From a virus, in the IMG/VR virus record IMGVR_UViG_3300045988_089680, positions 1 to 64,000 of that record: a DNA stretch of 64,000 bases, one strand, 5' to 3'. The notes beneath the pieces are model-generated. The model saw only the letters and a program-made list of their open reading frames with translations, did no database searches and was not told the origin of the DNA. Numbering within the stretch: the first letter of the stretch is position 1; each line of letters begins with the position of its first letter. Made by a program: the position numbers and the translations under genes. Below are positions 4,044-48,991 of the stretch, piece by piece.

Positions 4044-5603
4044 ATGAAGCCCAAGACACCAAATCAGAAGAAAGCATACGATGCCCTGAACCTACGACTA
4101 ATTAAGTATATGTCGCAGGTTCAGGGCATTTATGATAGAATAGCAAACCAAATAGCTATTGCTGTTGATAGTACTAATTATGACGGCTCAGTTGAATTTA
4201 ATTTTAGAGATTATCCAGAATTAAATCAAACAGTCAAAAATTTAATGTCTGATTATGCAGGACAGATGAATAACCTCATCTATTCTGGAACTTCAAACGA
4301 GTGGAAGGAAAGTAATATAATGCAAGACCTTTTAGCTCGTAAGGTTCTTCGTGCTTATGATTTTGAGAAGGGTGGAGATAAGTATCAGAGATATTTTCAG
4401 CCTAATACAGATGCGCTTAAAGCATTCCAACAAAGAGTAGATAGAGGGATGAATCTCTCTCAAAAGCTCTGGTTACAGTCACAGGCATTGAAGAAAGAAA
4501 TGGAGCAAACCATTTCAGCTGCAATTGAAAGAGGACAATCTGCGGTAGTTCTTAGTAAGAGAATAAGCAAATATCTCTCGGACTTTCCCTCAATGAAAGC
4601 AGACTATGCAGAGAAATATGGAAAAGCGGTAAGCTGTCTTGACTGCCAATATGCTTCTATACGTTTGGCACGAACGGAGATAAACATGGCTTACAGAAAG
4701 GCAGAGCAGATAAGATGGAAACAATTTGACTTCATCTTGGGGTATGAGATTAAATTGAGTAAGCGCCATCCTGCACCAGACATCTGCGATGATCTGATTG
4801 GAATATACCCTAAAGACTTTGTTTTCTTAGGATGGCATCCTAACTGCATGTGTTATGTTGTGCCTATTGTGATGAGTGATGAAGAGTATTATAACCCCAA
4901 ACAAAGTTTAAATAGTTACAAGCCACTGCCAAGTGGTCTTGGTTCTTGGATAGATAAAAACTGTTTACGAATACTATCCTCAAACATAAGGGAAACTTTG
5001 CCATACTGGTTACGTGACAACAAAAGTGTTAGAGATTGTGCCATATTGATAGGAAAAGCGAGGGAAATAGGTAATGATTTTAAGAAAATAGGAGAAACTA
5101 TAGCAGAAAAGGTAGGAGGAATCGTAACACCTGTTAATTATAAATCGTTTTCCTCTATGTATAGAAAGCTTATTACAGAGAATATCGACATCACAGACAT
5201 CAAAGATGCATTGAGAAGTACAATTATTGTCGATAAAGACAAGTTAGAGGAAGTGGTTTTCAATTTAAAACATTTAGATACATTCCTCAGACACAAGGAA
5301 CAAAAGCCTGAAATGTTCAATGGGTATAGTGGAAATATCATTAATCTATCTATGCCCAACAATATTGTGGCAGAGATTCAAGTAAATACAGCCAAAATGA
5401 TTTATGCAAAAGAAACAGAATCAAATGCAAAAAGAATACTCGGAGAAGAGTTATGGAATAAGATACGTTCGGAAACTAATTTGCAAGGAGGATTAGGACA
5501 TAAATATTATGAAGAAATACGGATGTTAAACAAAGTTACAGACCTACCAAAGATAGAAAGACTAAAAAGATTCTCTGAAGAATATTATTCACATTTCAGA
5601 TAA
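4044..5603 (+). CDS. MuF/SPP1-gp7-like minor head protein fused to a C-terminal RelA/SpoT-like (small alarmone synthetase-type) toxin domain
   Basis: MuF motifs are LARTEINMAY and WHPNCMCY. The C-terminal ~170 aa carry RSH-synthetase-like motifs: YKSFSSMYRKL, DIKDALRSTIIV, NGYSGNIINL and AEIQVNTAKMIYAKE. Confidence 0.7.
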   Translation: MKPKTPNQKKAYDALNLRLIKYMSQVQGIYDRIANQIAIAVDSTNYDGSVEFNFRDYPELNQTVKNLMSDYAGQMNNLIYSGTSNEWKESNIMQDLLARKVLRAYDFEKGGDKYQRYFQPNTDALKAFQQRVDRGMNLSQKLWLQSQALKKEMEQTISAAIERGQSAVVLSKRISKYLSDFPSMKADYAEKYGKAVSCLDCQYASIRLARTEINMAYRKAEQIRWKQFDFILGYEIKLSKRHPAPDICDDLIGIYPKDFVFLGWHPNCMCYVVPIVMSDEEYYNPKQSLNSYKPLPSGLGSWIDKNCLRILSSNIRETLPYWLRDNKSVRDCAILIGKAREIGNDFKKIGETIAEKVGGIVTPVNYKSFSSMYRKLITENIDITDIKDALRSTIIVDKDKLEEVVFNLKHLDTFLRHKEQKPEMFNGYSGNIINLSMPNNIVAEIQVNTAKMIYAKETESNAKRILGEELWNKIRSETNLQGGLGHKYYEEIRMLNKVTDLPKIERLKRFSEEYYSHFR

Positions 5604-5668
5604 ACAAAGTTAAATACTTGTATAATTGAATATAAATTCATAACTTTACAACCGATAAAATATTAAAT

Positions 5669-5896
5669 ATGAATGAGTTAGAAATTTGGAAGAAATTGCC
5701 AACAAAAGGTCAGATGTATATATACGACGATTTTGAAAAATTGGCAATAAGACTGCATGTAACCAAAGAGGTTATAATGTGTAACTTCAAGAGAAAAGGC
5801 AAAAGAGAAAAATTGGGGGATTTCACTTCTGCCTTTATAAGAGAAAGCATTTGTTACGGAAAAGAAATAACAAAAGAAGAATATGATAAACTTTGA
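5669..5896 (+). CDS. hypothetical protein (candidate immunity/adaptor)
   Basis: 75-aa ORF between the toxin-domain gene and the HD hydrolase. It overlaps the next gene by 14 nt. Confidence 0.4.
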   Translation: MNELEIWKKLPTKGQMYIYDDFEKLAIRLHVTKEVIMCNFKRKGKREKLGDFTSAFIRESICYGKEITKEEYDKL

Positions 5897-9147: not shown

Positions 9148-9220
9148 GCGGAGATAGCTCAGTTAGCAGAGCGCAATGTGTCCATCATTGAGGTCGTTGG
9201 TGCAGTTCCAACTCTCCGCT
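9148..9220 (+). tRNA. atypical tRNA-Gly(UCC)-like gene
   Basis: Cloverleaf folded by hand. The acceptor stem is gcggaga/tctccgc, the anticodon stem caatg/cattg with loop tgTCCat, and the T stem gttgg/ccaac. Discriminator is T. Non-canonical features are G at position 33, a D loop lacking GG, and a T loop TGCAGTT instead of TTCRANT. Confidence 0.55.
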
Positions 9221-9235
9221 CTAAATACTAAGAGC

Positions 9236-10303
9236 ATGAAAGTTACAATAATTGGAGCAGGAAACATAGGAGTAGCTTTCGCAGCTGACCTTTCTATTAA
9301 GGGACATGAAGTTACACTCCTAAAAACATCTTCATACAAATCAGATGCCTTTGATAGACTTATCAAGAACGGCAACAGGGTTTTTCTTAAAGAAAAATCA
9401 ATTTATACAGAAACTGCAATCAAAGAGGTTTCTAAAGACCTCAGCAAGGTTGCAGACGCAGAAGTTATATTTTGTACTATTCAGAGTAACTTCTATGAAG
9501 GTATAGTAGAACGTATACATCAATACCTTCACAAGGATCAGATTGTAGTCTGTGTCTGTAGTTACGCATCTTCCTTCTATTTTGATAAACATTGCAGAAT
9601 ACTACCAATGTTAGTTGAAGCAACTGGTCCATATTTGGAAGGACGAGTAGAGTTGGATGATAAACCAAACGAAGTTGTTTTTCGTGTTGGTTATAGGCAT
9701 GAAGTCATTCCTGTTTCATGCTTTTCTAATCATGATACATGTATAGAGAAACTGCATAGAATTAGCAAAGGTTTTATAGGAAAATATTGCGTGCTTGAAT
9801 CTGCATTACTCAATCCAAATATGGTGTTGCATACGATAGGTTCAATTATGAGTATTCCGAGAATAGAATATTCAAAGGGAAATTTCTGTATGTATCGTGA
9901 AGCATACGCAAGAGGAAATGACTCCACCATCAATCTATTGATGAGACTTGACGAAGAAAAGATGAAAGTCTTAAAAAACTTGGGCTTTTTCAAAACAAGC
10001 GTATTTGAAGCAGGAGGTTTTAATATGTCAGACCCAATAGAGAGTTTGTATCGTTACTCAGAATCTAATGATAGAGCAATCAGCCCTACGTCTGTTCACT
10101 CACGTTACATCACAGAAGATGTTTCAGAGGGATTGGTACTGATGGAAAGTATTGCCAATCATATAGGCTTAGAGCTTCCGGTTACATCATCCCTCATTAC
10201 GCTTGCAAGTGTAGCTTTAGGGATTGACTTCCGAAAGACAGGAAGAACTATTCAGAGATTAGGTATTGTTAACGAAATAGATATGCTTCATGAATGTAGA
10301 TAG
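9236..10303 (+). CDS. NAD(P)-dependent opine (octopine/nopaline) dehydrogenase-family protein
   Basis: Rossmann motif MKVTIIGAGNIGVAFA, plus C-terminal RYITEDVSEGLVLMESIA typical of the octopine_DH helical domain. I moved the start off the tRNA-overlapping track ORF (9176). Confidence 0.6.
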   Translation: MKVTIIGAGNIGVAFAADLSIKGHEVTLLKTSSYKSDAFDRLIKNGNRVFLKEKSIYTETAIKEVSKDLSKVADAEVIFCTIQSNFYEGIVERIHQYLHKDQIVVCVCSYASSFYFDKHCRILPMLVEATGPYLEGRVELDDKPNEVVFRVGYRHEVIPVSCFSNHDTCIEKLHRISKGFIGKYCVLESALLNPNMVLHTIGSIMSIPRIEYSKGNFCMYREAYARGNDSTINLLMRLDEEKMKVLKNLGFFKTSVFEAGGFNMSDPIESLYRYSESNDRAISPTSVHSRYITEDVSEGLVLMESIANHIGLELPVTSSLITLASVALGIDFRKTGRTIQRLGIVNEIDMLHECR

Positions 10304-12368
10304 CGACATAAAAAACAGAACTTTCGGTATTGAAATCGAAATGTGCAATCTTGAAAGGGCGAAGGTAAATTTGCCCGAAGGTTACTCCTGGAGCAAGGAA
10401 GAGAGCATTGATAATACCGATTGTTCAAGCAATAAGCAGTTTGGTGGAGAGGTGAATACCCCTCCACTACATCTTTGCTGCCTAAAAGAGCTGCATGACC
10501 TCCGTTCTGTATACGAATCGATGGTTGTTGCAGGTGGCAAGATTAAGTGGAGTATAGATACTCATGTCCATATATATGTAGGCGATTTGACAGTCGATCA
10601 GCTAAAGAAAGTATATCTATTCTTTTATGTCTGCTATCCATATTTTAAAAGATATGCGAAAATTTCAGATTGGGATGAAAACATATTCAATGCAAAACCT
10701 ATTCCTACAGAAAAATATTTCGAAGGAGTAAAAAATGCACAGACGTTTGATGATTTACAAACTCTCTTCACTAATCAGTCTAAGAAGGGGTTCATACGTC
10801 ATGCAGTGAATATCTCGGCATATTTTAAGACAAAGACGATAGAATTCAGAACGTTTCATGCAACTGATGATTTCTATCGAGCTATGAATTGTGTGTATTC
10901 TGCATATCGCATATTCTATTACGCCATAAGCCACGAATTGGAAGATTATCAATCCATAACATCTTACAAGCAATTTTGTGAGGTTACGGGGCTTAAATAT
11001 GATACTCCAGAAGAGTTATGTCCACTCCTATACCAAGGGAATCCATATAGCGCAATAGAAGCTTTTATGACTATGCCTTTGCCCTACAATTCTAAAATGG
11101 TTTCAGTTCTGTATGATGCCATAAAAGCTAACGGACACAAGGAAATCTGCATAGTAAATGGCTTCATGTATTACTATGAGTTATTCTTCCTTGATAAGGT
11201 GGAAGTATCTATATACTGCCAAGATGCCTACTGCTATCTGCTCTATATGTTGGCAAATGGCAAAACATCACTTACATATAAGGATAAGCTTGCATGGTTA
11301 GAAGATTACAATAACCCGACACCATCAAGACAGCTTGCTTTGGCTCTTTATGCGGTGAAACTGCAAAAGTATTTCATGAGCGAATCGGCAAGAAATAGTG
11401 CCATCTTCGAAGCGTTGAAAATTAAGGCAAGGGAATCTATCGAGAAAACCGAGCAGGTAAATGAGCGATTGATGAGATTACTCACAACATGTGATTTCCA
11501 TGTCGGAACACTAGAAGAAGCCATTAAGAATAAGAAGGTAATCTTCTTTAATTACGGAAGAAAAGAGAAGAATCAGAAGAGAGCATTCAAACTCATTTCT
11601 GAGAACAGTGACTTAAAATCGGACTTTTCAGTCGCAAGAAACGACTATTACAATCTTGTGGAAAGTATTCCTAGCGATAGCTATTTCTACTATTTTAGCA
11701 ATAGTCCTTACCTGAGAAACTTGCATAAAATTGCTTTAATGGACAGTTCAACTGGTGAAAGGTGGGCGGCTGGAAGATACTTATACTGCAATAAGCCAAT
11801 TGTAAAAAAAAGTGTAAACACATCGTATACTTCGTTCAGAGATGAGTGCAACGAGATTGTCCCACCAGACAACTTAGAGATCAGCAACCCAAACTTGTTG
11901 AAAATAGAGGTAGTTTCACCACCGCTGCTGAAGAATCTTCAAAGAAAGTATATCAAAAAGATAGATCAAGTTTCCAGTGCGGTATTCCCATTTGTGGTTA
12001 AGTACGATAAATATACTCTTGGGGGATTTGGATTTACGTTATCTAAGTATGACAAATACGACTTGTTCCAAATTTCGGATTTTTGCACCAACAACGCAAT
12101 TCCAAGGTTGAGTAAGCTAATTCTTTACTGCGTTTTATCCGTAGGAGTACAGAAATATCTTAATAGGAGAATGCACAAGTTTATCAACAAGGTTCTATCT
12201 CTTGCTTACACACATAAGCCAGTGAGTATGAAATATCGTGGTGTGTACAAAAAAGTTAAAGAGCACTGCACATCATCTTATCTTGCTTACGAAGGAATAC
12301 TTGGTCTATACCCTACGAGTAAGGAAATCATCGAGAAATATCAAAAATCGTTGAAGAATGGAAAATGA
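10290..12368 (+). CDS. amidoligase (COOH-NH2 ligase, glutamine-synthetase-like fold) domain protein with a ~475-aa unknown C-terminal region
   Basis: N-terminal motifs FGIEIEM, GGEVNTPPL, THVHIY, RHAVNISAY and TIEFRTFHAT match Amidoligase_2. It overlaps the upstream gene by 14 nt. Confidence 0.6.
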   Translation: MNVDSDIKNRTFGIEIEMCNLERAKVNLPEGYSWSKEESIDNTDCSSNKQFGGEVNTPPLHLCCLKELHDLRSVYESMVVAGGKIKWSIDTHVHIYVGDLTVDQLKKVYLFFYVCYPYFKRYAKISDWDENIFNAKPIPTEKYFEGVKNAQTFDDLQTLFTNQSKKGFIRHAVNISAYFKTKTIEFRTFHATDDFYRAMNCVYSAYRIFYYAISHELEDYQSITSYKQFCEVTGLKYDTPEELCPLLYQGNPYSAIEAFMTMPLPYNSKMVSVLYDAIKANGHKEICIVNGFMYYYELFFLDKVEVSIYCQDAYCYLLYMLANGKTSLTYKDKLAWLEDYNNPTPSRQLALALYAVKLQKYFMSESARNSAIFEALKIKARESIEKTEQVNERLMRLLTTCDFHVGTLEEAIKNKKVIFFNYGRKEKNQKRAFKLISENSDLKSDFSVARNDYYNLVESIPSDSYFYYFSNSPYLRNLHKIALMDSSTGERWAAGRYLYCNKPIVKKSVNTSYTSFRDECNEIVPPDNLEISNPNLLKIEVVSPPLLKNLQRKYIKKIDQVSSAVFPFVVKYDKYTLGGFGFTLSKYDKYDLFQISDFCTNNAIPRLSKLILYCVLSVGVQKYLNRRMHKFINKVLSLAYTHKPVSMKYRGVYKKVKEHCTSSYLAYEGILGLYPTSKEIIEKYQKSLKNGK

Positions 12369-23194: not shown

Positions 23195-23304
23195 ACCCAA
23201 GTAGCTCAGTTGGTTAGATTGCGAGACCAAATCCTGTCCTGTAAAATCCAGTTGGTCTTTAAAAAGATGGTTGAGAGACGCAGGTTCGAGTCCTGCCTTG
23301 GGTG
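23195..23304 (+). ncRNA. 110-nt aberrant tRNA-like element
   Basis: Perfect acceptor stem acccaag/cttgggt, a canonical 5' D region tagctcagttggtta, and a canonical T arm gcagg-TTCGAGT-cctgc. The middle 60 nt contain no 5-bp/7-nt anticodon arm (I checked every register). Instead there is a 7-bp stem agaccaa/ttggtct with a 21-nt loop. Confidence 0.4.
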
Positions 23305-33936: not shown

Positions 33937-34149
33937 ATGAGATACGCAATAGTAGATACAGAGAAGGCAGAAGCCAAAGGGCTTAAAGCAAAATACCATA
34001 TTACGAACAACACACGTTCGAAAATGGCAGTGAATGAAAACGAATTGCTCAAGATTGAAAGTGACCCTGCCACAGCTGCACGTCAGCTGGGTGGTGAGCT
34101 TTTAGAATATGAGCAGTTCAAGTCAAAACTTAACAAATGGGACGAGTAA
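33937..34149 (+). CDS. hypothetical protein
   Basis: 70-aa ORF. Confidence 0.35.
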   Translation: MRYAIVDTEKAEAKGLKAKYHITNNTRSKMAVNENELLKIESDPATAARQLGGELLEYEQFKSKLNKWDE

Positions 34150-34152
34150 CAT

Positions 34153-35259
34153 ATGGGTAACACAGTTAAAGGAGCGTTCACGGTGCGCTTTCTCCGAACA
34201 GGAGACCAAATCTTTATAGTTAAGAACGTCGTAAAATTCGACCAGAAAGGAACTGAGAGTGGAGCTGCTTTGTTTCAGGCGATAGATCCTACGAACGGCA
34301 CTTTGTCAGCAGATTGGAAAACAGACATCTACAATCAGCCTGCGCTCAAAGTAGGTCTTAGCAGTGCTGTAGGCAATCCTGTAACGATAACTAACATCAA
34401 GTGGACCTACAGAGGTGTGGAGCTTGCATTTAACGCAAGTGCGGCAACAAGTGGCAACTATGTAGGATGGCAGCTTTCAACGGACGGTAAATTTGCTAAA
34501 AAGGAGACAGACGGTTACTGCTATCTCCGTTTTATCGACAATGCTGCAAGTCCTTCGGTGGTGTCTAACCAAATCATCGGCTTTGAAATTAGCTATATAT
34601 GCAACAATGTGCGTGACACATACAAAGGCTCAGAAGATGTACTTATACAGGAAGCAGGTGCTGACAGCTACTCAGTGATTATAAGCACGAACATTGTATC
34701 ACTCGAAGCAACCCAAAACACAGAAACAACTCTAACAGCTCGATGTATGTACGGTGTAAAGGACATAGCAGACGATGAGTTTACTGCAAATTGGAAACTG
34801 GAATGGTACAAGGACTTTGTTCTTATTGAAGGTCAGAATGAAAAAACGCTCACGGTGACACGTGACGATGTTGACGGTAGCTCTGTATATAGCGTTAAGC
34901 TCCTGCATAAGGAAGGAGACGCATGGGTAGTGAAAGCTGTTGATGCACAGAGAATAACAGATGAGTCGGACGAGTGGCAGATTAAAGCGACACCAGACGG
35001 TACAAATCCCGATGCCATCTCAAAGACGAGCAATGCAAAATATTTGCTCACCCTAACCCAGAATGGTTCTCCGTACACTAACAGTACAATCACGTGGAGT
35101 TGGGAGGTATGGAATGCTATCAATGTTAAGACATACACAGGCTCAGGCTCAAGCGTGACTCTTACAGCGGATATGGCAAAATGTATACCCGACACGAGTA
35201 ATACCGACAAATACTATCACTCAGATGTAGCAGTTGAAGTGGAAGCAACAATATCGTAA
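34153..35259 (+). CDS. putative tail fibre/structural protein
   Basis: 368 aa, beta-rich, in the tail-tip cluster. Confidence 0.35.
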   Translation: MGNTVKGAFTVRFLRTGDQIFIVKNVVKFDQKGTESGAALFQAIDPTNGTLSADWKTDIYNQPALKVGLSSAVGNPVTITNIKWTYRGVELAFNASAATSGNYVGWQLSTDGKFAKKETDGYCYLRFIDNAASPSVVSNQIIGFEISYICNNVRDTYKGSEDVLIQEAGADSYSVIISTNIVSLEATQNTETTLTARCMYGVKDIADDEFTANWKLEWYKDFVLIEGQNEKTLTVTRDDVDGSSVYSVKLLHKEGDAWVVKAVDAQRITDESDEWQIKATPDGTNPDAISKTSNAKYLLTLTQNGSPYTNSTITWSWEVWNAINVKTYTGSGSSVTLTADMAKCIPDTSNTDKYYHSDVAVEVEATIS

Positions 35260-35280
35260 TTATTTAAAAAAACAACAAAT

Positions 35281-36663
35281 ATGACAGCATTCAGCAAAAT
35301 TACAGAACGAGGACTATCATCAAGTCTTAACGAAACGGATTACATAATGGTTGTGGCAGGTGGCTCGCTCAAGCGAATCACTCTCGCCAATCTCAGAGCG
35401 ATGATGGAGGAAAACCAGCAGCAGTTCTTGGACGAGAACGCATTTTATATCGAAGAAAACACGGCATCGAGCAAAGGAAGTACAAGCTGCGACACTGGCG
35501 GCAGCAGCCTTATGCGTCAGATATGGCTATCTAAGATTACTGGCATCCTAATGTCTCCCGATGGTCACTATACACGTCTGAATCCCAAGGACCACCGATA
35601 TACAGCAGATGGCGACCAAGTCGTGAGCAACGGAGTGGTTGTGGCTGCATATCAAAAAGCAGACTGGTTCGGCATGTTGGACGGTGGTTATTGGAACTTT
35701 ATACAAGAGGTGGTTATCAGCGGTGTTAAGCACCTTCGTCACCACATATCGCTCACTCCATTGCCCGGTGGATGGTACACTAAGAACGTACCTGTAGGCA
35801 TGTTTAAATGCTTTATGCAGAATAACCAGTTGCGAAGCATTCCATTTGTAGTACCTACTGGAAGTCAGAAGATAAACAATTTCTTCAACCTTGCGCAAGC
35901 ACGAAACAAAAATTATGGTTTGGCTGGCGAGCCTTTCCGCAATTTCCTGCTACAGTACATGATGGCTAAGTATGGATATCGTGATATACAGAACCTAACA
36001 GCTAAGGATGGTACTAAGATTTTCGGTCCAGGTCTGGATGGAACAGAAAAAAGCGCAACATCAACATTAGCAGACGGATTCGAACGACAGAAGAATATCA
36101 AGACAGGCGCGTGTCTCGCTCTTGGTTACAATGATGGCAAAGTTGAAGTCAAGGATGCAGATAATTACGCATGTCACAGTGTAAACGTAGGAGTATGGGA
36201 AAATCCATACGGTCAGTATTGGGAAACAGACGGACACTTATGCTCAGTAGGTACAACAGTGTATCAGTGGGACAGTAACTTTATGCCGAGTATTGATAAA
36301 CCTACGGTAGACACATTTGCAACGGTTGATTGCCGTAAGCTTACAATACTGTCATCAAAAGAATGGGTTTCTAATCATGAGATAACGCTTGTCACAACGG
36401 CAGGAGCACAGTACATGAGCTATGTGCCAATTGTTGAAAAGAATGGCATTAGCTATAATGATGGCTATTCATACTCTGCTAATGGTCAGCTGTGGCTGTG
36501 TGGCGGTTTCTCGGACGCCGCTTCGGATTGCGGTCTCGAGCGTGCGCACTCGGGTAGCGCTTGGGCGGCCGCGAGCTCGTACGTCTCGGCTCGGCTTGAT
36601 TATCATGGCGAGATTAAAGAGGTTACCTCAGCAGAACTCAAAAAGATACTCGCAAGTGCATAG
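35281..36663 (+). CDS. DGR target protein (putative receptor-binding tail fibre protein with a C-type-lectin/FGE-like variable C-terminus)
   Basis: 460 aa. The C-terminal GQLWLCGGFSDAASDCGLERAHSGSAWAAASSYVSARL is encoded by the VR. Confidence 0.75.
   Translation: MTAFSKITERGLSSSLNETDYIMVVAGGSLKRITLANLRAMMEENQQQFLDENAFYIEENTASSKGSTSCDTGGSSLMRQIWLSKITGILMSPDGHYTRLNPKDHRYTADGDQVVSNGVVVAAYQKADWFGMLDGGYWNFIQEVVISGVKHLRHHISLTPLPGGWYTKNVPVGMFKCFMQNNQLRSIPFVVPTGSQKINNFFNLAQARNKNYGLAGEPFRNFLLQYMMAKYGYRDIQNLTAKDGTKIFGPGLDGTEKSATSTLADGFERQKNIKTGACLALGYNDGKVEVKDADNYACHSVNVGVWENPYGQYWETDGHLCSVGTTVYQWDSNFMPSIDKPTVDTFATVDCRKLTILSSKEWVSNHEITLVTTAGAQYMSYVPIVEKNGISYNDGYSYSANGQLWLCGGFSDAASDCGLERAHSGSAWAAASSYVSARLDYHGEIKEVTSAELKKILASA
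36488..36597 (+). repeat. DGR variable repeat (VR)
   Basis: Aligns without gaps to 36774-36883 at an offset of 286. Of the differences, 11 fall at TR adenines and 1 at a TR thymine. Confidence 0.85.
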
Positions 36664-36690
36664 AAATTATTAAAATCTCCCCAAGGGGGT

Positions 36691-36710
36691 GTGGGGGATA
36701 AATCCCCCAC
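36691..36710 (+). other. GC hairpin downstream of the VR/target stop
   Basis: gtggggg-ataaat-cccccac, a 7-bp stem flanked by further G5/C5 runs. Confidence 0.5.
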
Positions 36711-36773
36711 TCAAATCATACCCCCAAAAACTCCTTGCCCAAGCTCGTGGCAAGGTAGGCAAAGGATAAGGAT

Positions 36774-36883
36774 AGCTGTGGCTGTGTGGCGGTTACTCGG
36801 ACGCCGCTTCGGATTGCGGTCTCGAGCGTGCGAACTCGAATAACGCTTGGGCGTACACGAGCTCGTACATCTCGGCTCGAATT
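36774..36883 (+). repeat. DGR template repeat (TR)
   Basis: Non-coding copy of the VR. It carries AAC/AAT/TAC codon equivalents where the VR differs. Confidence 0.85.
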
Positions 36884-37142
36884 ACTTCAACGTCTTTCGG
36901 AAACGGAGGACGAAATATAAGGACATTAGTACTGCGTCATGGGAAAATGTCCGCCTTATCTGAGCCTCGGCAGCTGGTGCATAAGTATAGCCAGTGATTA
37001 GCCGGAACAAATCGAACTTGCGCAGGCAACGTCAGCGACCTGCCAGTGGTGTTAGTAAATCCAAATTGGAAGTTGAAAGCTCTGCACAGAGAGAAGCAAG
37101 CTACCGATAAAAAATACGAGTTACTTGAAAACACGAAAGACA

Positions 37143-38662
37143 TGCCGAAAAGACAAGGTTACATATACGACCAGATGTGGCAATGGGACACATTAAAGGA
37201 AGCGGATAGAGTATCTACAAGACGTAAAAAGAACTACGGTGTAAAGAAGCACAAGAAGCAATGGATTAAAGACCTTGTGGAAGTTCAGAATATTATCCAC
37301 GACCGCAAGATGCGAACCGACGAATATAAGCATATGGAGGTGAACAATGGCAAGAAGAGGAGAAAAATCAGCAAACTTAACTTTCATCCAAATCACCTTG
37401 AACATCAAGCCTTGGTCTTAGTAAGTCACGACAGAATAGAACGCACATTGATTTCGCACACTTATGCGTCGAGAATCGGCTATGGACAGATAGCAGGTGC
37501 GTTGCAAGTAAAGAAATGGTTGCGAGAAAAAAGTGAGGAATGCTTGTGGTATGCACAAGGCGACATTTGCAAATACTATGCAAACATAGCACATGCCGTG
37601 TTGAAGAATAACTTGGAATACCTCTTTAAGGATAAAGAGTTTATCGATGCCTACATGGAACCGTTCGAGAGGTTTACTATAAGCGGTAAGGGCATACCTC
37701 TTGGAATCCGACCAAGCCAAGACAGCGGAAATATAGCTCTTATGCGATTTGACAGACATATGAAGGAGGTTGCAAAAGCTCACCTTTACCTGCGATACCT
37801 TGATGATTTCGTGATATTCGGAAGAACCAAGGGCGAGGTTAAGAGAAAAATGAAAATGGCGGAAGCTTTCCTTAAAGAATTAGGTTTTAAGATACACGAA
37901 CCTAAAATACGCCCTATCAGCGAAGGTTTAGACTTCCTTGGTTACGTATTCTACGAAGGTGGTGATATGTACTGGAGGAAGAGCAACAAGGTAAGTTGGC
38001 TGAAAAGAAGAACTAAGGTAACCAACAAACGCCGACTTCATGAGATAGACGCAGCAGCATGGGGAATGATAAAATGGGGAAATAAACATTGTAAAAGGTT
38101 ATATAAAATGGAAACAGGAATAGATATGAGCGAACTCGGCATAGAACTGCCGAAGAAAACGGACAGTATGGGTATGCGCATTATCGACGCTCCTAAGATT
38201 ACTGCATCAGTTGTGCTTAACAGTGAGCTTGAAGTGGTAGATTGGGTAAGAAACGTTGAGACAAGCTACGGCACGGGGCGTTATGCTTTGGAGGTTGTCT
38301 TCTATGGAAAGCACCATAAGCTCATTGTTAACACGTCAAAAATCAAGCAGATTATCGATGGTTTCGCCCTTGCCAACGTGACAAGCTTTACTGGCAAGTT
38401 CAAAGATGAAGGTGGTAATCATTTTTACTTTGACAATGTTAGAATCACAGGTATTGACAAACGACCTATAGGCAGGAACGAGGAAGGTAAACTCATTTTT
38501 ACCGACAAGAATGAACCAGTTGACATGGATGCCATGAAAGCCAAGGGTGCGGAAAATGTCAAAAAGGAAGCTGAAATAATGAAGAATGTGGAAGCTGCAC
38601 GCAAGGCAGAACTTGAGAAAAAGGCTGCTGAACAAGAAGAAAAGAATCAAAACAAAAAATAG
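37143..38662 (+). CDS. DGR-type reverse transcriptase with a ~200-aa C-terminal extension
   Basis: RT motifs are GIPLGIRPSQDSGNI (DGR-type LGxxxSQ) and YLRYLDDFVIFG (YxDD). It lies immediately downstream of the TR. I chose the ATG at 37143 over the track start at 37046. Confidence 0.85.
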
Positions 38663-38673
38663 GAGGAAATAAA

Positions 38674-39108
38674 ATGAAAAATCAGTATGGAAATATCAGA
38701 CGAGTGTTTATGACAGAGAAGCCTATGGTATACGACCGAGAGACGCGTATAGCATACATGGACTTTCAAACTGACACACAGACGAAAACTAACACCGACA
38801 ATGTTAGTAATACAACAAAGGGCAAGAAAGAGTCTAACACTATTGAGGGATACAGCGGTTTTGTTGTACAGACAGACGGTATCATCGATTACGGACACCT
38901 CAAGAGCTTGCTCATTGAAGCAGGTTATCCTCAGAAGGAAGAACATGCTATTTCTATCAACACAATCAGCGCACTCATGGCAAAGATTAATGGCAAGGAG
39001 CTGAGTGATGATGCTAAGAATGACATCGCTACTTTTGAGGAGTTTGACGAGTATCGCGGTCTGTGCGCAAACTGTGCAAGAGCGATAGTTGACATATTCA
39101 AGGTATAA
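38674..39108 (+). CDS. hypothetical acidic protein
   Basis: 144-aa ORF between the RT and the fibre gene. It is not Avd-like. Confidence 0.4.
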   Translation: MKNQYGNIRRVFMTEKPMVYDRETRIAYMDFQTDTQTKTNTDNVSNTTKGKKESNTIEGYSGFVVQTDGIIDYGHLKSLLIEAGYPQKEEHAISINTISALMAKINGKELSDDAKNDIATFEEFDEYRGLCANCARAIVDIFKV

Positions 39109-39128
39109 ACAATTAAAAAGGAGAGCAC

Positions 39129-41423
39129 ATGCCAAAACCAAAACTAAGAACATTCAAGGGTTCGTTCACTTGCAGGTGGGCTCCTTCGGATGGCGAGGAT
39201 GGAGCATACACGGCCTATAGCTACAACATCAGTAAAAACAAGACAAGTAAAAATTCATCCACTGCACCTACAGACTGCTATTACTCCACATGGCAGGACG
39301 CGCCGATAGCAACCACCGAAACATATCCGTTTTTGTGGATGAAGATGGAACGCAAGAACGACGCGAGCGACAAGAGTGTGAGCTATGTCTGTGTAACAGG
39401 TGATAAAGGCGACAAGGGTAACCCTGGAGATAACGGTACGGATGGCAACGGCATAGCGTCGCAGGTGTCGCTTTTCGTAGCTACGGACAAGAAAGCGGTG
39501 GCCTCGTATGGCAGCGTGTCTGGCTGGAGCAACCTCTTTCCGCAGCCTATAGAACAAAAGCCTTATGTGTGGAAATGTGTAAAGACTACCTACACAAAAA
39601 AACCAAACTCCTACTCTACTCCAGAGCTTGTGACTATCTATCAGAGCGGAACTAACGGCAATATACTTCGCAATGCGTCATTTACCGATTCGGGCAACAT
39701 GGAAGCGTGGGTAACACAAAGCAAGTATAGCATGTTGAGTCATAGCGCACCGATTGGCGACGGTGAGGGTATAGATACAAGCAACAAGCTGCATGGACAT
39801 AACTCCTACTTCGACAGATGTAGCGGTGTGAGTGGAGCTGCTAATTACAAGGACGTGCTTGTACAGACGATACATCATCCTAACGGAGGACTAAACAATA
39901 TTGTTAACGGTCAGTGGTACACACTGAGCTTTTGGGCAAAACGAGCTACCAATGTTATTACCCTTAACAAGACTGTATCCGCGACCTCCTATGCTATTGC
40001 AAACGTCTATCTTAAAGCAGGAATAGAGTATGCTATTAGTGTACAAAGCACTGTATCAAGTGCATCATACCCTATTGTCACAGCTGTGACACTTAACGGC
40101 ACATCGGCTGCAAGCTTAATTATTATGCAAACAGACAGTGGCAGAAAGACCGACTATCTTACACCGTCTACAAGCGGTATATATGTAATACGCAGCATTG
40201 TGGGCGGTAGCACGGGCAAGGGCACGGTTACTTCCTATGCTGTTGACGATAGCCGCGACCTATCCACTTATCTTGCTCCCAGTCTTATTGACACAAGCAG
40301 TAAGATATATGTTGATGGCGAGGAACGCACACCGTCGGCAGACTTGGGTGTTGTATGGTCGTTAGCAAGCGAATGGAGCTTTCACACGCTGACATTCAAG
40401 GCGGCATCGAGCCTAACTGCATCGGTTAAGCAGCAGTTGTCCTTTAGACTGGACTCTGTGCCTCATGTAGACCTTTGGCGTAAGGTGTGGATATGCGAAC
40501 CTAAACTCGAAAGCGGCATGATGTACACGGGATATGTAGACAGTTCAGAAGATTTGAAGGGTATTCCTGGCCTTATAGAACGCACAAGCGAATGGGTAGC
40601 AGGAGTTGAGTATCACAACGACTCAAATCTGACTGGAGGTATAAGATACCGTGACATAGTGACCGTAACGGACACGAAAGGCAACTTTGAGATATACGTA
40701 TGTCAGAAGACTCATCTATCCACGACCTCAAATGCACCTAAAACAGGCGAAGACAGCGCAGAATGGCTACACATTAATAATATGCAAAGACCTATCTACA
40801 CGCCACTTATCATAGCAGATAATGCGGTGCTGCGATTTGGGCAAACGAACAGAATGCTCATCACGAACAGCTCTCAGAAGGTGCAAGGTTGCTTTGGTGG
40901 TGTTGAAGACGAAGTAAACGGCTATCCACTGTGGATCGGTGGAGAGACAGCAGAGAAGGCGAACTTCAGACTGAGGTATGATGGACACATGGAAGCATTT
41001 GATGGTTTGTTCTCTGGCTTTGTTTTTAAGAAGGAGGTAGTTATTACTGATGATAACTTATCTTATTACTTGGAAAAATCCCCTTGGGGTTATGATGCCA
41101 TAAATCTAAAAAAAACAGGTTCAAGAATAAGACTTAAAATTAAAGATGCTTGTGACATATATATTCCTTGTATCTATCCTGAAGTGACAACTTATACCGA
41201 AGAACACAAAGACTTGTGTCGTTCGTATATTGGTACTACATTATTGATTTACGTAGAAAGTGGCACTGCGGTATTTACGGGAAACTTCAAGATAAAAGAA
41301 ACTGACAGCCCTTCGAGCTATGCTGTGACAGCAGGACGTTTTGCCGCTTTAACATGTAGCATAACAGGCACGAATGACAAAGAGGATATATATTGGTTGA
41401 TAAGGGTGGGAAAACAGAATTAA
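39129..41423 (+). CDS. tail fibre protein with a short collagen-like G-X-Y stretch
   Basis: 764 aa, containing GDKGDKGNPGDNGTDGNG. Confidence 0.55.
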   Translation: MPKPKLRTFKGSFTCRWAPSDGEDGAYTAYSYNISKNKTSKNSSTAPTDCYYSTWQDAPIATTETYPFLWMKMERKNDASDKSVSYVCVTGDKGDKGNPGDNGTDGNGIASQVSLFVATDKKAVASYGSVSGWSNLFPQPIEQKPYVWKCVKTTYTKKPNSYSTPELVTIYQSGTNGNILRNASFTDSGNMEAWVTQSKYSMLSHSAPIGDGEGIDTSNKLHGHNSYFDRCSGVSGAANYKDVLVQTIHHPNGGLNNIVNGQWYTLSFWAKRATNVITLNKTVSATSYAIANVYLKAGIEYAISVQSTVSSASYPIVTAVTLNGTSAASLIIMQTDSGRKTDYLTPSTSGIYVIRSIVGGSTGKGTVTSYAVDDSRDLSTYLAPSLIDTSSKIYVDGEERTPSADLGVVWSLASEWSFHTLTFKAASSLTASVKQQLSFRLDSVPHVDLWRKVWICEPKLESGMMYTGYVDSSEDLKGIPGLIERTSEWVAGVEYHNDSNLTGGIRYRDIVTVTDTKGNFEIYVCQKTHLSTTSNAPKTGEDSAEWLHINNMQRPIYTPLIIADNAVLRFGQTNRMLITNSSQKVQGCFGGVEDEVNGYPLWIGGETAEKANFRLRYDGHMEAFDGLFSGFVFKKEVVITDDNLSYYLEKSPWGYDAINLKKTGSRIRLKIKDACDIYIPCIYPEVTTYTEEHKDLCRSYIGTTLLIYVESGTAVFTGNFKIKETDSPSSYAVTAGRFAALTCSITGTNDKEDIYWLIRVGKQN

Positions 41424-41439
41424 ATAAAACTAAGACATC

Positions 41440-41868
41440 ATGAAAGTAAGTAACGAATTAATTGACAAGATTAAACAGTTTGAGGGCTACCGCTCTAAAG
41501 CTTATAGATGTTCGGCAGGAGTGCTGACGTGTGGCTACGGTCACACTGAGGGAGTGACTGCAAGGACTACGTGCAACAAGACTAAGGCTCTTGCATGGTT
41601 AAAATCCGACCTTGAGCCGATAGAGAACTTCCTCTCGGCTGTGCCTGAGGTGGCAAAGACACAAGGGAGGTTTGACGCTTGTGCGGACTTCTGTTTCAAT
41701 CTTGGCATGGGGGCGTTTAAGGTGTCTACGCTCTTCAAGCTGATACAGAAGAAGGCTTCGGTGACTGCTATTCAGGCAGAGTTCTTAAAGTGGATTTACG
41801 CAGGTGGCAAACCTTTGGAAGGATTGAAAAACCGCAGACGATGGGAAGCTCAGAGATGGGTCGAATAA
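41440..41868 (+). CDS. endolysin, GH24 lysozyme family
   Basis: The motif FEGYRSKAYRCSAGVLTCGYGHT is typical of GH24 lysozymes. Confidence 0.8.
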   Translation: MKVSNELIDKIKQFEGYRSKAYRCSAGVLTCGYGHTEGVTARTTCNKTKALAWLKSDLEPIENFLSAVPEVAKTQGRFDACADFCFNLGMGAFKVSTLFKLIQKKASVTAIQAEFLKWIYAGGKPLEGLKNRRRWEAQRWVE

Positions 41869-41890: not shown

Positions 41891-42379
41891 ATGGTGAATA
41901 ATATAACTGCAAGTACAGGACGTGCTGTTGTGGTCGGCACGATGGGCGTTGAAGCAATGACAGCACTCTACGATTTACGATGGATGCTTGTGTTGATAGT
42001 GGTGTTGATAGTTGCGGACTTTTGGTTCGGGGTGAGCGAGAGCCTTCATAAACACGAGCACTTCCGCTTCTCGAGAGCAGGACGGAGAACGTGCAACAAG
42101 GCGGTGGACTATGTGACGTACCTTATACTTGGCTCGGTGATAGGTCTTGCTATCTTTGAGCCGCTTGGTTGGGCGACACACACCACTACGGCTGCTATAG
42201 GATTGGGGTTTGGATGCGTGTGGGAGATTGATTCGATTGTGGGTCATGTGTGCGAGCTGCACGGTGTAAAAAACAGGTTTTCTATTAAGCGTCTCATTAT
42301 CGCGCTGATAAAAAAGAAGGATGCTGACATGGGAGAAGCGGTTGAAGAGGCGTGGAGTGAAGAAGGAGAAAAGAAATAG
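41891..42379 (+). CDS. holin-like membrane protein
   Basis: 162 aa with about 3 TM segments, adjacent to the lysozyme. Confidence 0.5.
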   Translation: MVNNITASTGRAVVVGTMGVEAMTALYDLRWMLVLIVVLIVADFWFGVSESLHKHEHFRFSRAGRRTCNKAVDYVTYLILGSVIGLAIFEPLGWATHTTTAAIGLGFGCVWEIDSIVGHVCELHGVKNRFSIKRLIIALIKKKDADMGEAVEEAWSEEGEKK

Positions 42380-47737: not shown

Positions 47738-48991
47738 CTATTTATCCTCGTTTATATCAAGTATATAATCTATTACCTTACGATTTGCATCGTCTATTTT
47801 TTTTCGATTAAAATTGATATACACTTGTGTAACAGCAGCTCCTGTCGAATAAGAATGTCCAAGAGCACGACTTATAACATCTTCTGGTATATCAAGTTCG
47901 CTTGCCAATGTAGCCCATGTATGCCTTGCCCAGTATGATGATAGACGAGGGAACAAAGGTGTGTACTCCTTGATGAATTTATGGCGATGCGTTTTTGAAA
48001 ATTTCGGGTTTTGAATTATAACGCATTTCCCTACTCTTTTAAGCTGATAGTCAAAACTACCTATAAAAGATTGTGTAGTCTTATATCTTTCTAAGATGTC
48101 TAGTAAGTACTCGTTGCCTTTGTATCGATTTATTATCTCAAGTGCTTCTGGTTCTACTTTTATAGAATACAACTTTTTGGTCTTCCGGCGTCTGTAGTTA
48201 ATTCTACCTTGACTATCTATTTCTCTCAATTCGCACAAATCAGCAATGTTAATGCCAATTAGATATATACATAACTTAAATAAGTCTATAGTTCGCTGTA
48301 GATGAGGATCGGCTACTGCAAACAATGACCTAACCTCATCTAAAGTTAAAGAGCGTTTTACTGTCTGTTCCGTTTTAATCTTAAACACACGAAAAGGATA
48401 ATTCTGAGTAATCTCGTTATCTAAAGCATCATTGAAAACAGCTCTAATACTACGAAAATGCATGTTACGTCCATTTATAGTAGGAGAATACCTCCGTAGG
48501 AAAATGTCAAATCCGGTAAGCCAGTCTTTTGTTATGTTTTCAAATGTTTTTGACTTAATATGATTGTCATACTCTAACATCTTCTTTGCTGTTAATAAAT
48601 ATATCTTTTTTGTTCGCATTGCAGAACGAGAGTTCGCAAAAGAAAGAAAACGATTATAGAAACTGTTAGACGCAGCAACAGCAGGATCCAGCATTTCTTG
48701 CACTTTATTTTTTATTTGTGTTGCTGTCAGTTTTGTTAATTTTCCATCCTTGGTTAAATCCATGATTATATTAGACACTTTATTGCGTAGAGTGTCTATA
48801 TAACTTTGAAGAGCTTTCTTATTAGGATGGTCTTTAATACGTTCTTTTTCTGCATCCCATTGAGTGGGATATATTCTCACATTCAAAGATATATAAGCAG
48901 AAGACCCCTTCTTATTTATGCCGATTTTAAGAGGAGCTTCTTCACCACGCTTTACTGAACGCTTATCTAAATATAAATGTACTGTTGCCAT
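47738..48991 (-). CDS. int: tyrosine recombinase/integrase (Bacteroidota Arm-domain type)
   Basis: 417 aa. The N-terminal Arm-type beta domain reads VHLYLDKRS...PLKIGINKKG. The C-terminal catalytic motifs are ARHTWAT, LGHS and VYI. Confidence 0.85.
   Translation of the reverse strand: MATVHLYLDKRSVKRGEEAPLKIGINKKGSSAYISLNVRIYPTQWDAEKERIKDHPNKKALQSYIDTLRNKVSNIIMDLTKDGKLTKLTATQIKNKVQEMLDPAVAASNSFYNRFLSFANSRSAMRTKKIYLLTAKKMLEYDNHIKSKTFENITKDWLTGFDIFLRRYSPTINGRNMHFRSIRAVFNDALDNEITQNYPFRVFKIKTEQTVKRSLTLDEVRSLFAVADPHLQRTIDLFKLCIYLIGINIADLCELREIDSQGRINYRRRKTKKLYSIKVEPEALEIINRYKGNEYLLDILERYKTTQSFIGSFDYQLKRVGKCVIIQNPKFSKTHRHKFIKEYTPLFPRLSSYWARHTWATLASELDIPEDVISRALGHSYSTGAAVTQVYINFNRKKIDDANRKVIDYILDINEDK

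Follow-up and report, generated by a model that had tools for sequence, protein, structure and literature searches.

Organization of the Locus

The DNA analysed in this work is a 64,000-nucleotide (nt) viral sequence (IMG/VR record IMGVR_UViG_3300045988_089680, positions 1 to 64,000), hereafter called the window. The subject is a diversity-generating retroelement (DGR) at positions 35,281 to 38,662, in which a tail-fibre-like target gene carrying a variable repeat (VR) is followed by a non-coding template repeat (TR) and a reverse transcriptase (RT) gene. A first-pass annotation, made from the letters alone, had proposed a DGR diversifying the C-terminus of a tail-fibre-cluster protein. Three points treated below were absent from it: the lack of an Avd gene, the extra C-terminal domain of the RT, and the nature of three repeat mismatches, which are of the initiation of mutagenic homing (IMH/IMH*) type. 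The features on which the reading depends are the following:

35281..36663, + strand: target gene, a 460-residue (aa) tail-fibre-like protein with the VR in its C-terminal ~58 residues
36488..36593, + strand: VR, codons 403-438 of 460, a gapless repeat with the TR
36509-36583, + strand: sites actually varying in the VR, codons 410-435
36774..36879, + strand: TR, non-coding, with 16 adenines, all at codon positions 1 or 2
37142-38662, + strand: RT gene, 506 aa from the ATG at 37142
37142..38107, + strand: RT proper (aa 1-322), of DGR type, with matches to PF00078 and phrog_1423 and with bRT-like sequence and fold

More than 250 homologues of the RT were found in the protein database, most of them 455-510 aa long, and more than 45 loci with 44-100% RT identity were fetched from IMG/VR and genomes. 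The related loci include a prophage of Prevotella sp. 885 and metagenome-assembled genomes of Proteiniphilum, Rikenellaceae, Porphyromonadaceae and Bacteroidaceae. In nearly all loci, the target has a 3' VR, the TR lies 245-330 nt downstream, and the RT begins 190-360 nt past the TR. In the window, there are 110 nt from the target stop to the TR and 257 nt from the TR to the RT start.

Variable and Template Repeats

Positions 36488-36598, inside the coding sequence 35281-36663 (+), align without gaps with 36774-36884 at an offset of 286. The full 111 nt contain 12 mismatches, 11 of them at TR adenines, while the TR has 19 adenines in this length (hypergeometric p=1.8e-9). The coordinates and counts were as the first-pass annotation had given them, and every one of its codon examples (TAC>TTC, AAC>CAC, AAT>GGT, AAC>AGC, ACG>GCG, ATC>GTC) was correct. 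Its treatment of all 11 adenine mismatches as diversification stood for the eight in the mutagenised core, but not for the last three (36594, 36595 and 36598). At these sites the VR end (GGCTTGAT) and the TR end (GAATTACT) differ in a fixed manner: every relative shows the differences but L013, in which the first VR site is A. Since fixed differences across relatives are expected of IMH versus IMH*, these three sites were not counted as diversification. The core, 36488-36593, has nine mismatches, eight of them at TR adenines, and the bias remained significant when it was computed for this part alone (p=3.6e-7). By codon position 1/2/3 in the VR frame, the 16 adenines of the TR core are distributed 6/10/0.

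The sole non-adenine mismatch in the window, T36854 in the TR against G36568 in the VR, is real, and the opening ~60 bp of the VR are indeed quiet, with one change only, at 36509; both had been noticed in the first pass. The repeat has a GC content of 59%, compared with 40% for the window. A scan of the whole window on both strands, with any base allowed at TR adenines, found no VR beyond the one known. Taken over 46 related loci, 581 of the 628 VR/TR mismatches (92.5%) lie at TR adenines; adenines account for 22% of the TR.

Variation between closely related assemblies was also found. An independent metagenome assembly from the European Nucleotide Archive (ERZ28572406), L068, differs from the window at 10 positions over 7,617 bp and is otherwise identical. 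All 10 differences are inside the VR, at 36509-36581, and eight of them are at TR adenines, while the RT is 100% identical and the TR is identical to that of the window. In addition, seven Logan contigs from seven sequencing runs have one shared TR allele with three different VRs. Heterogeneity restricted to template adenines, which the first-pass annotation had proposed to look for in the VR, was thus seen between assemblies as variation confined to the VR and mostly at TR adenines. Since L068 differs from the window at VR sites only, these sequences indicate that the element is, or very recently was, active.

The 3' ends of the repeats and the region past the target stop contain three further features:

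36584..36608, + strand: IMH-like 3' end of the VR (TCTCGGCTCGGCTTGATTATCATGG), conserved, differing from the TR end at fixed positions
36870..36892, + strand: IMH*-like 3' end of the TR (TCTCGGCTCGAATTACTTCAACG), conserved among relatives
36691..36710, + strand: GC-rich hairpin GTGGGGG-ATAAAT-CCCCCAC, with a 7-bp stem predicted by folding, just past the target stop

Related VR ends read GGCTCGGCTTGAT in all but one, which has GACTTGAT, and related TR ends all read GGCTCGAATTACT or GCCTAACT. No variable site lies 3' of these conserved, distinct ends in the relatives compared. By analogy with Bordetella, the VR end is expected to be IMH-like and the TR end IMH*-like (PMC5758913). Most relatives examined also have a strong predicted GC hairpin in this position, each with its own sequence. 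The hairpin may serve as a terminator, or it may correspond to the GC-rich inverted repeat downstream of IMH.

Target Protein

The target matches the tail protein family phrog_5302 (E=1.5e-7). No Pfam, NCBIfam or PDB sequence match was obtained, and only the fold searches were informative. The AlphaFold (AF2) model has a predicted local distance difference test score (pLDDT) of 86.8 and a predicted template modelling score of 0.85. With this model, Foldseek returned tail-fibre and 'tail collar fibre' proteins of crAss-like and other gut phages, with E down to 1.6e-23, and a single significant PDB fold match, TaqVP (5vf4), a Thermus DGR variable protein (E=7e-6, probability 1.0). The tail-fibre, C-type-lectin-like target of the first-pass annotation is supported by the phrog_5302 match, the crAss-like fibre folds and TaqVP, the last with a modest template modelling (TM) score. 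From these models, the target tip would likely adopt a C-type-lectin fold.

Comparison of close protein homologues gave an entropy per site of 1.27 bits within the VR and 0.28 bits elsewhere. The conserved scaffold consists of W405, G408, G409, S411, C417, G418, L419, S424, W428, S436, A437, R438 and L439. The motif W.CGG...CG..R...W..A proposed for the variable region held in part, since C407 and R421 vary in the family and do not belong to this scaffold.

Reverse Transcriptase

The mechanical open reading frame (ORF) and gene callers placed the RT start at GTG 37046, giving 538 aa, and the same call is found in public contigs. However, the start is most likely the ATG at 37142, since homologues align from this ATG and 37046-37100 falls in a conserved structured RNA. 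The GTG-started extension is not common to RT homologues.

The DGR-type motifs LGxxxSQ and YLDD noted in the first pass are present as LGIRPSQ (aa 187-193, nt 37700-37720) and YLDD (aa 219-222, nt 37796-37807), in an ORF ending at 38662, and they are conserved. R74, L187-G-x-x-x-S-Q193 and Y219-L-D-D222 are invariant or near-invariant in the family.

The RT was compared with group II and retron references, as had been suggested. The best PDB sequence match is the Bordetella DGR RT (bRT, 8ub7), with E=2.8e-20 over bRT residues 1-289 of 328. Matches to a group II maturase (5.6e-8) and retron-type RTs (~7e-4) are weaker, and Drt3a also stands behind bRT. The AF2 model of the RT, built from 61 homologues, has a pLDDT of 86.8, and Foldseek again gave bRT first (E=8e-21, TM 0.88 on the target). 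Thus, the assignment to the DGR type is supported by the closest match in both sequence and modelled fold.

The NCBIfam group II model TIGR04416 scored 61 bits against a cut-off of 300, and the Drt2/3a/4/5 and retron St85 models gave 18-47 bits with cut-offs of 200-550, none of which was reached. PADLOC reported generic RT similarity only, and Rfam found no group II intron RNA around the RT.

RNA Elements Flanking the Template

Two RNA elements lie on either side of the TR:

36733..36765, + strand: 5' flank of the template RNA, a hairpin (36733-36755) CCTTGCC-CAAGCTCGT-GGCAAGG followed by the conserved TAGGCAAAGG
36920..37101, + strand: conserved structured non-coding RNA between TR and RT (Sp-like), ~180 nt, ~10 helices, from a 23-locus alignment

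In relatives, the stems of the 5' flank differ while the hairpin is kept (CCTCGCC/GGCGAGG, CCTCCG/CGGAGG, CCACC/GGTGG, CCCCGG/CCGGGG and others), and it is always followed by YRGGYRWA.

The RNA between TR and RT contains near-invariant motifs along its length: TGCGTCAT (36933), GAGCCTCGGCAGC (36962), GGAACAA (37004), CTTGCGC (37017), GTGTTAGTAA (37049), TTGAAAGCT (37073) and GCAAG (37096). RNAalifold on the 23-locus alignment gave 31 pairs, 19 of them with compensatory changes. After one helix was added (35 pairs), 96.3% of cells were paired, compared with 31-44% when the partners were slid by 1-3 columns. Double changes were seen in 22 of the 35 pairs, and the observed values were reached in 0 of 500 shuffles. 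No Rfam family matched the TR-flanking RNA at the gathering or E-value threshold, and scans for promoter and terminator consensus sequences performed no better than on shuffled sequence.

Absence of Avd and the C-Terminal Domain of the RT

No Avd gene was found in the cassettes of the more than 45 loci, and the locus in the window has no HRDC or MutS-like accessory gene either. With a VR-to-TR spacing of 245-330 nt across the family, there is no room for a gene of Avd, which is a small, basic protein (~120 aa) folded as a four-helix bundle. In the window, Avd families were absent both at the neighbouring ORFs and among 25 of the 28 Pfam families listed for 38 small ORFs. From these sequences, the locus appears to lack Avd, although a very divergent one remains conceivable, since Avd proteins are poorly conserved (PMC5758913). 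Such an arrangement has precedents: avd is absent from 26% of DGRs, which include the TR-RT 'Architecture A' and the avd-less Lineage 3 (Wu et al. 2018, PMC5758913), and most crAss-like phage DGRs are without Avd (PMC12386605, PMC7290462).

Downstream of the RT proper, the following features were recognized:

38123..38527, + strand: C-terminal beta-rich domain fused to the RT (aa 328-462), AF2 pLDDT ~80-90, phrog_19665
38528..38662, + strand: Lys/Glu-rich helical tail of the RT (aa 463-506) and stop, a single long predicted helix with an isoelectric point (pI) of 9.0
38674..39108, + strand: acidic 144-aa ORF directly after the RT, pI 5.2, conserved by tblastn

In the AF2 model, the C-terminal domain is joined to the RT by a low-confidence linker and consists of three strands, a helix, and then three or four strands; its strand-strand-strand-helix-strand-strand order recalls the oligonucleotide/oligosaccharide-binding (OB) fold. 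The domain is conserved across the RT family, in upwards of 250 homologues with lengths of 455-510 aa. It matches phrog_19665, a 105-position family of unknown function. No Pfam match was found, and its profile against PDB sequences gave noise only (best E=0.31). The Foldseek listing for the full RT model was filled by RT matches, so no fold class was obtained for the domain. The helical tail is restricted to the closest relatives of the window, and most homologues end at ~91% of the query.

A profile search of 1.84 billion representative proteins gave 145 matches to the C-terminal domain, which are the C-termini of RTs of ~430-500 aa together with many stand-alone proteins of ~100-150 aa, some possibly fragments. 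In locus L080, one such stand-alone protein, P0272, overlaps with a 327-aa RT at the 3' end of the latter; this locus is a clear DGR with one TR and two VRs, whose mismatches are at A in 14/14 and 20/20 cases. Another, P0292, is the second ORF after the DGR RT in L083 (14/14 mismatches at A). A third candidate, P0283, was rejected as a stand-alone protein, being part of a frameshifted fused RT. The 434-aa RT of the Hankyphage type has the first half of the domain (hhalign probability 94.7%, E=5.9e-8), and in LoVEphage-type records the match to the window RT is spread over the RT and two following ORFs. Three arrangements are thus seen: fused to the RT, as an overlapping downstream ORF (L080), and as a second downstream ORF (L083, and probably the LoVEphage type).

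Since the domain stays with DGR RTs while shifting between fused and separate states, its sequence distribution makes it a good candidate for an accessory factor of the DGR. About 20% of DGR RTs have a motif-less C-terminal extension of up to ~150 aa (Wu et al., PMC5758913), and in the DGR literature cited here no account was found of the RT extension forming a distinct domain that is elsewhere encoded by a gene of its own. It is possible, though we hesitate to favour it, that this domain is an unrecognised DGR accessory module that acts with the ~180-nt RNA and replaces Avd in many Bacteroidales phage DGRs.

Alternatively, Avd could be needed as in Bordetella but supplied in trans by phage or host, with the C-terminal domain unrelated to diversification. 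This would fit a domain without a recognisable nucleic-acid-binding family and a search for the poorly conserved Avd proteins (PMC5758913) that was made by Pfam only. It would also fit a Hankyphage-type record in which the ORF after the RT is labelled 'Avd'. However, this ORF of Bacteroides phage jmh72_hp (PV107408.1; L088:4299-4784) matches DUF4376 (E=1.3e-5) with no Avd family reported, and the label may be a positional guess. The Pfam families of the small ORFs and of the DGR neighbours include no Avd, all of the more than 45 cassettes lack it across 44-100% RT identity, and the domain tracks DGR RTs in its three arrangements. In addition, for DGRs without Avd, no avd encoded in trans was found by Wu et al., who proposed a homing mechanism that does not depend on Avd (PMC5758913). 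An Avd acting in trans is therefore considered unlikely.

The 144-aa ORF was also considered. A homologue lies 10-60 nt past the RT in nearly all related loci, with 30-100% identity by tblastn. With its profile, PV4-TP1/LoVEphage-type loci also gave a match, while L080, L083 and the Hankyphage-type locus, all of which have the C-terminal domain, gave none. No family match was obtained. As an Avd it was rejected, being acidic and showing no resemblance to the Hankyphage-type ORF labelled 'Avd'. An accessory role in the DGR, comparable to the acidic CH1 described by Wu et al., is conceivable, but it may also be just a syntenic gene of the phage tail module.

Template Alleles and Loss of Adenines

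The TR itself varies among close relatives. Over 11 kb, L001 shares 97% identity with the window, and the two RTs are 100% identical, while the two TRs have six differences, at 36794, 36803, 36804, 36854, 36861 and 36866. All six sites are A in L001 and T, G, C, T, G and T, respectively, in the window. Since outgroup TRs have AAC or AAT codons at these places, A is the ancestral base, and by this comparison the window TR has lost 6 of ~22 ancestral adenines. Two of the lost AAC codons (now TAC and GCC) are in the first half of the repeat, which accounts for the near-silent first 60 bp of the VR; three more are now TAC, AGC and TAC. The expected effect of such loss is to freeze codons that once varied.

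The window TR allele can be taken as real and heritable, since L068, an independent assembly, pairs the identical TR with another VR. Seven contigs share a second allele (codons 28/30/32 = TCC/ATC/TAC), and a third is present in L071. The samples behind L069-L077 include SRR9161586, SRR34508197 and ERR11457754. The VRs paired with the second allele all keep TCC, as expected if non-adenines are copied faithfully. Between near-identical phages, 14 of 15 differences among TR alleles are at ancestral adenines by our count (TRs compared at L001:5633-5738, L068:2729-2834, L069:2729-2834 and L071:2729-2834).

The non-adenine mismatch T36854/G36568 can be examined in this light, since 36854 is an ancestral-A site of the TR. 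G36568 could be a leftover of an older TR allele with A, but this explanation was weakened by L068, which with the same TR has T at the matching VR site 36568. L068 has its own T-to-G change at 36522, a separate site with the same TR base, which makes substitution at non-adenines, at a low rate, no less likely an explanation. The two sites suggest low-frequency non-adenine substitution, possibly preferring T-to-G. Non-adenine substitutions are reported for 23% of catalogued DGRs (PMC5758913).

In some relatives, the TR is altered much further, with most AAC codons replaced (12-17 sites): L007 (=L024; TR at 5601-5720), L037 (2601-2720), L036 (2540-2645) and L035 (2537-2642), with one contig per case. 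L024 and L037 are 99.1% identical, yet they have 13 TR differences, 12 of them at canonical-adenine positions. In L024, L036 and L037, the VR/TR mismatches no longer show an adenine bias. Since these are single-contig cases, an assembly chimera is possible for the heavily altered TRs of L007/L024, L036 and L037. It was rejected for the window allele, of which an identical copy exists in an independent assembly, and for the L069-type allele, which is found in seven contigs.

The TR could change through stray homing of mutagenised complementary DNA (cDNA), through conversion by the VR, or through point mutations under selection. The replacement of 12-17 ancestral adenines at once in some lineages points to rewriting by cDNA or a VR copy rather than to point mutation. 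In this family, stray cDNA or copies of the VR may thus overwrite the adenine sites of the TR itself, gradually freezing codons. A progressive replacement of TR adenines by adapted bases in stable environments has been predicted in theory (bioRxiv 10.64898/2026.02.18.706561), and TR variants within one species are known in Treponema denticola (PMC4891356). In contrast to these precedents, the alleles of near-identical phages described here differ almost solely at ancestral adenines, with 12-17 of them changed at once in some lineages.

Adenine loss raises the alternative that the locus is a dead relic, whose VR/TR differences record past activity and whose diversification has ceased. The six adenines missing from the window TR would fit this, as would the TRs of L007/L024, L037 and L036, which are nearly stripped of AAC codons and without adenine bias. 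On the window TR allele, however, VR turnover is far above background divergence (10 VR sites in 7.6 kb in L068), the RT reading frame is unbroken and retains every catalytic motif, with RTs 100% identical to it in L001 and L068, and the spacer RNA is intact. A relic is thus very unlikely.

Phage Context

The target gene follows a 1,703-aa ORF, which from its length is probably the tape measure, and several tail proteins, and it precedes the lysis cassette. The window also encodes an SPP1-type portal, tail proteins and replication genes. Further genes are:

41440-41868: endolysin, lysis cassette
41891-42379: holin, lysis cassette, a weak match below the cut-off
47738-48991, - strand: tyrosine integrase with Arm-DNA-binding domain

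The tyrosine integrase and the position of L060, a locus with a 72%-identical RT, inside the 197-kb Prevotella sp. 885 contig NZ_NOVE01000003.1 point to a temperate phage. From these sequences, the phage is temperate and siphovirus-like, with Prevotella as the likely host genus. Related IMG/VR contigs are ~37-55 kb long. The possibility that the 64 kb are a wrapped-around genome was rejected, as the window ends share no sequence. Megablast of 34000-40000 against 50,697 phage records found no near-identical record.

Apart from the DGR, a 692-aa protein at 10290-12368 (+) combines an Amidoligase_2 domain, a phage-type DNA adenine methylase-like domain 2 (E=1.4e-89) and a phage GNAT-like domain, and looks like a DNA-modification enzyme fusion. 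ARAGORN called a tRNA-Gly(tcc) at 9148-9221 (+), overlapping the start of the ORF 9176-10303 and not reported by Rfam, while Rfam gave a 110-nt tRNA match at 23195-23304 (+; 36.3 bits) that was not called by ARAGORN.

Discussion

The window almost certainly carries an active or very recently active, Avd-less DGR of the 'target - TR - RT' order in the tail module of a temperate siphovirus-like phage of Prevotella/Bacteroidales. The DGR proposed in the first-pass annotation is thus supported. Three outcomes would have spoken against it, namely an RT grouping outside the DGR clade, no adenine-restricted VR variation, and a mismatch bias without significance, and none of them was observed.

In the proposed mechanism, a transcript would run from the hairpin at ~36733 through the TR (36774-36892) into the structured spacer, to an estimated ~37100, and this template RNA would be bound by the DGR-type RT (37142-38662). 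The cDNA, made by a putative priming mechanism, would take the place of the VR (36488-36593) at the 3' end of the target gene, with the VR-specific IMH-like end directing the exchange. In the C-type-lectin-like tip, about 10-12 codons among residues 410-435 would be randomised, while adenine-free scaffold codons would stay fixed. The beta-rich C-terminal domain of the RT may stand in for Avd. The presumed benefit is a retargeted recognition of the host surface, with the target as a putative receptor-binding protein.

Some observations weigh against this interpretation or parts of it. The evidence of activity comes entirely from assembly comparison, and one T-to-G non-adenine mismatch is present in the window and one in L068. 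The GC hairpin lies ~80 nt past the IMH-like end rather than adjoining it, further than in Bordetella. There is no Avd, HRDC or MutS-like gene, so the Bordetella bRT-Avd mechanism is not directly transferable. Finally, the VR loop of the target model (residues 409-426) has a pLDDT below 50, as expected of hypervariable columns, and the TM score to TaqVP is just 0.36-0.43.

That the RT belongs to another system (group II intron, retron or DRT/UG) and the repeat is an ordinary duplication, as the sub-threshold PADLOC and NCBIfam matches to generic RT, UG/DRT and group II models might suggest, can practically be dismissed: these matches are far below curated cut-offs (61 vs 300 bits for group II), bRT is the best match by sequence and fold, the RT stands in a tail module with a TR/VR pair, and ordinary duplication would neither place 92% of 628 mismatches at the adenines of one copy nor restrict variation to one copy.

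Compared with the DGR of Bordetella phage BPP-1 (mtd-avd-TR-brt), the locus shares a tail-fibre target with a 3' VR, a TR upstream of the RT, adenine-specific mutagenesis at codon positions 1 and 2, and repeat ends that differ as IMH/IMH*. The RT fold is the same (TM 0.88), with an IGxxxSQ-type motif, and RNA elements are present on both sides of the template. Unlike BPP-1, the window is without Avd, its RT has ~180 extra C-terminal residues and only ~25% identity to bRT (Foldseek), the GC hairpin is distant from the IMH-like end, and the spacer RNA has no Rfam match.

The locus resembles in arrangement the Architecture A/Lineage 3 DGRs of Wu et al. and most of those of crAss-like phages, which are avd-less, ordered target - TR - RT, phage-associated and of Bacteroidales or gut origin, and have a tail-fibre target with a C-terminal C-type-lectin-like domain. 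Unlike the crAss-like podoviruses, the window phage is temperate and siphovirus-like (integrase, SPP1-type portal, very long putative tape-measure ORF).

The Hankyphage-type phages (Bacteroides phage p00, jmh72_hp) and LoVEphage/PV4-TP1 are also temperate phages of Bacteroidales, and their DGRs likewise combine a tail-fibre target with a TR and an RT. The match between their RT regions and the window RT extends through residues ~406-410; the jmh72_hp RT has the N-terminal half of the C-terminal domain, and PV4-TP1 has a homologue of the 144-aa ORF. However, RT identity to the Hankyphage type and LoVEphage is only 25-33%, the backbones differ (~43 kb in the Hankyphage type, 71 kb in LoVEphage), and in the LoVEphage type three annotated ORFs together cover the match to the window RT. 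With regard to the target, TaqVP (5vf4) is alike in its fold match and in having the VR at the C-terminus. It differs in its low TM score and identity (11-12%) and in being bacterial rather than of phage origin, and the VR loop of the window model is of low confidence.

A DGR in a gut Bacteroidales phage is an already known kind of element, and the absence of Avd is not new by itself. To our knowledge, DGRs are the sole natural system of targeted protein hypermutation in prokaryotes, and we know of no DGR mechanism that has been resolved biochemically other than that of the Avd-dependent Bordetella bRT-Avd. About one DGR in four is of this less studied, Avd-less form, among them many from abundant gut phages. 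The locus and its more than 45 relatives provide a compact, sequence-defined Avd-less system, composed of an RT, an extra domain and an RNA supported by covariation. On comparative evidence throughout, its specialist interest lies in the template-flanking RNA, the RT-linked domain that perhaps replaces Avd, and the adenine-specific drift of the TR. Moreover, the TR alleles found in independent samples supply real data on the predicted loss of template adenines, by which hypermutation would be narrowing or shutting down.

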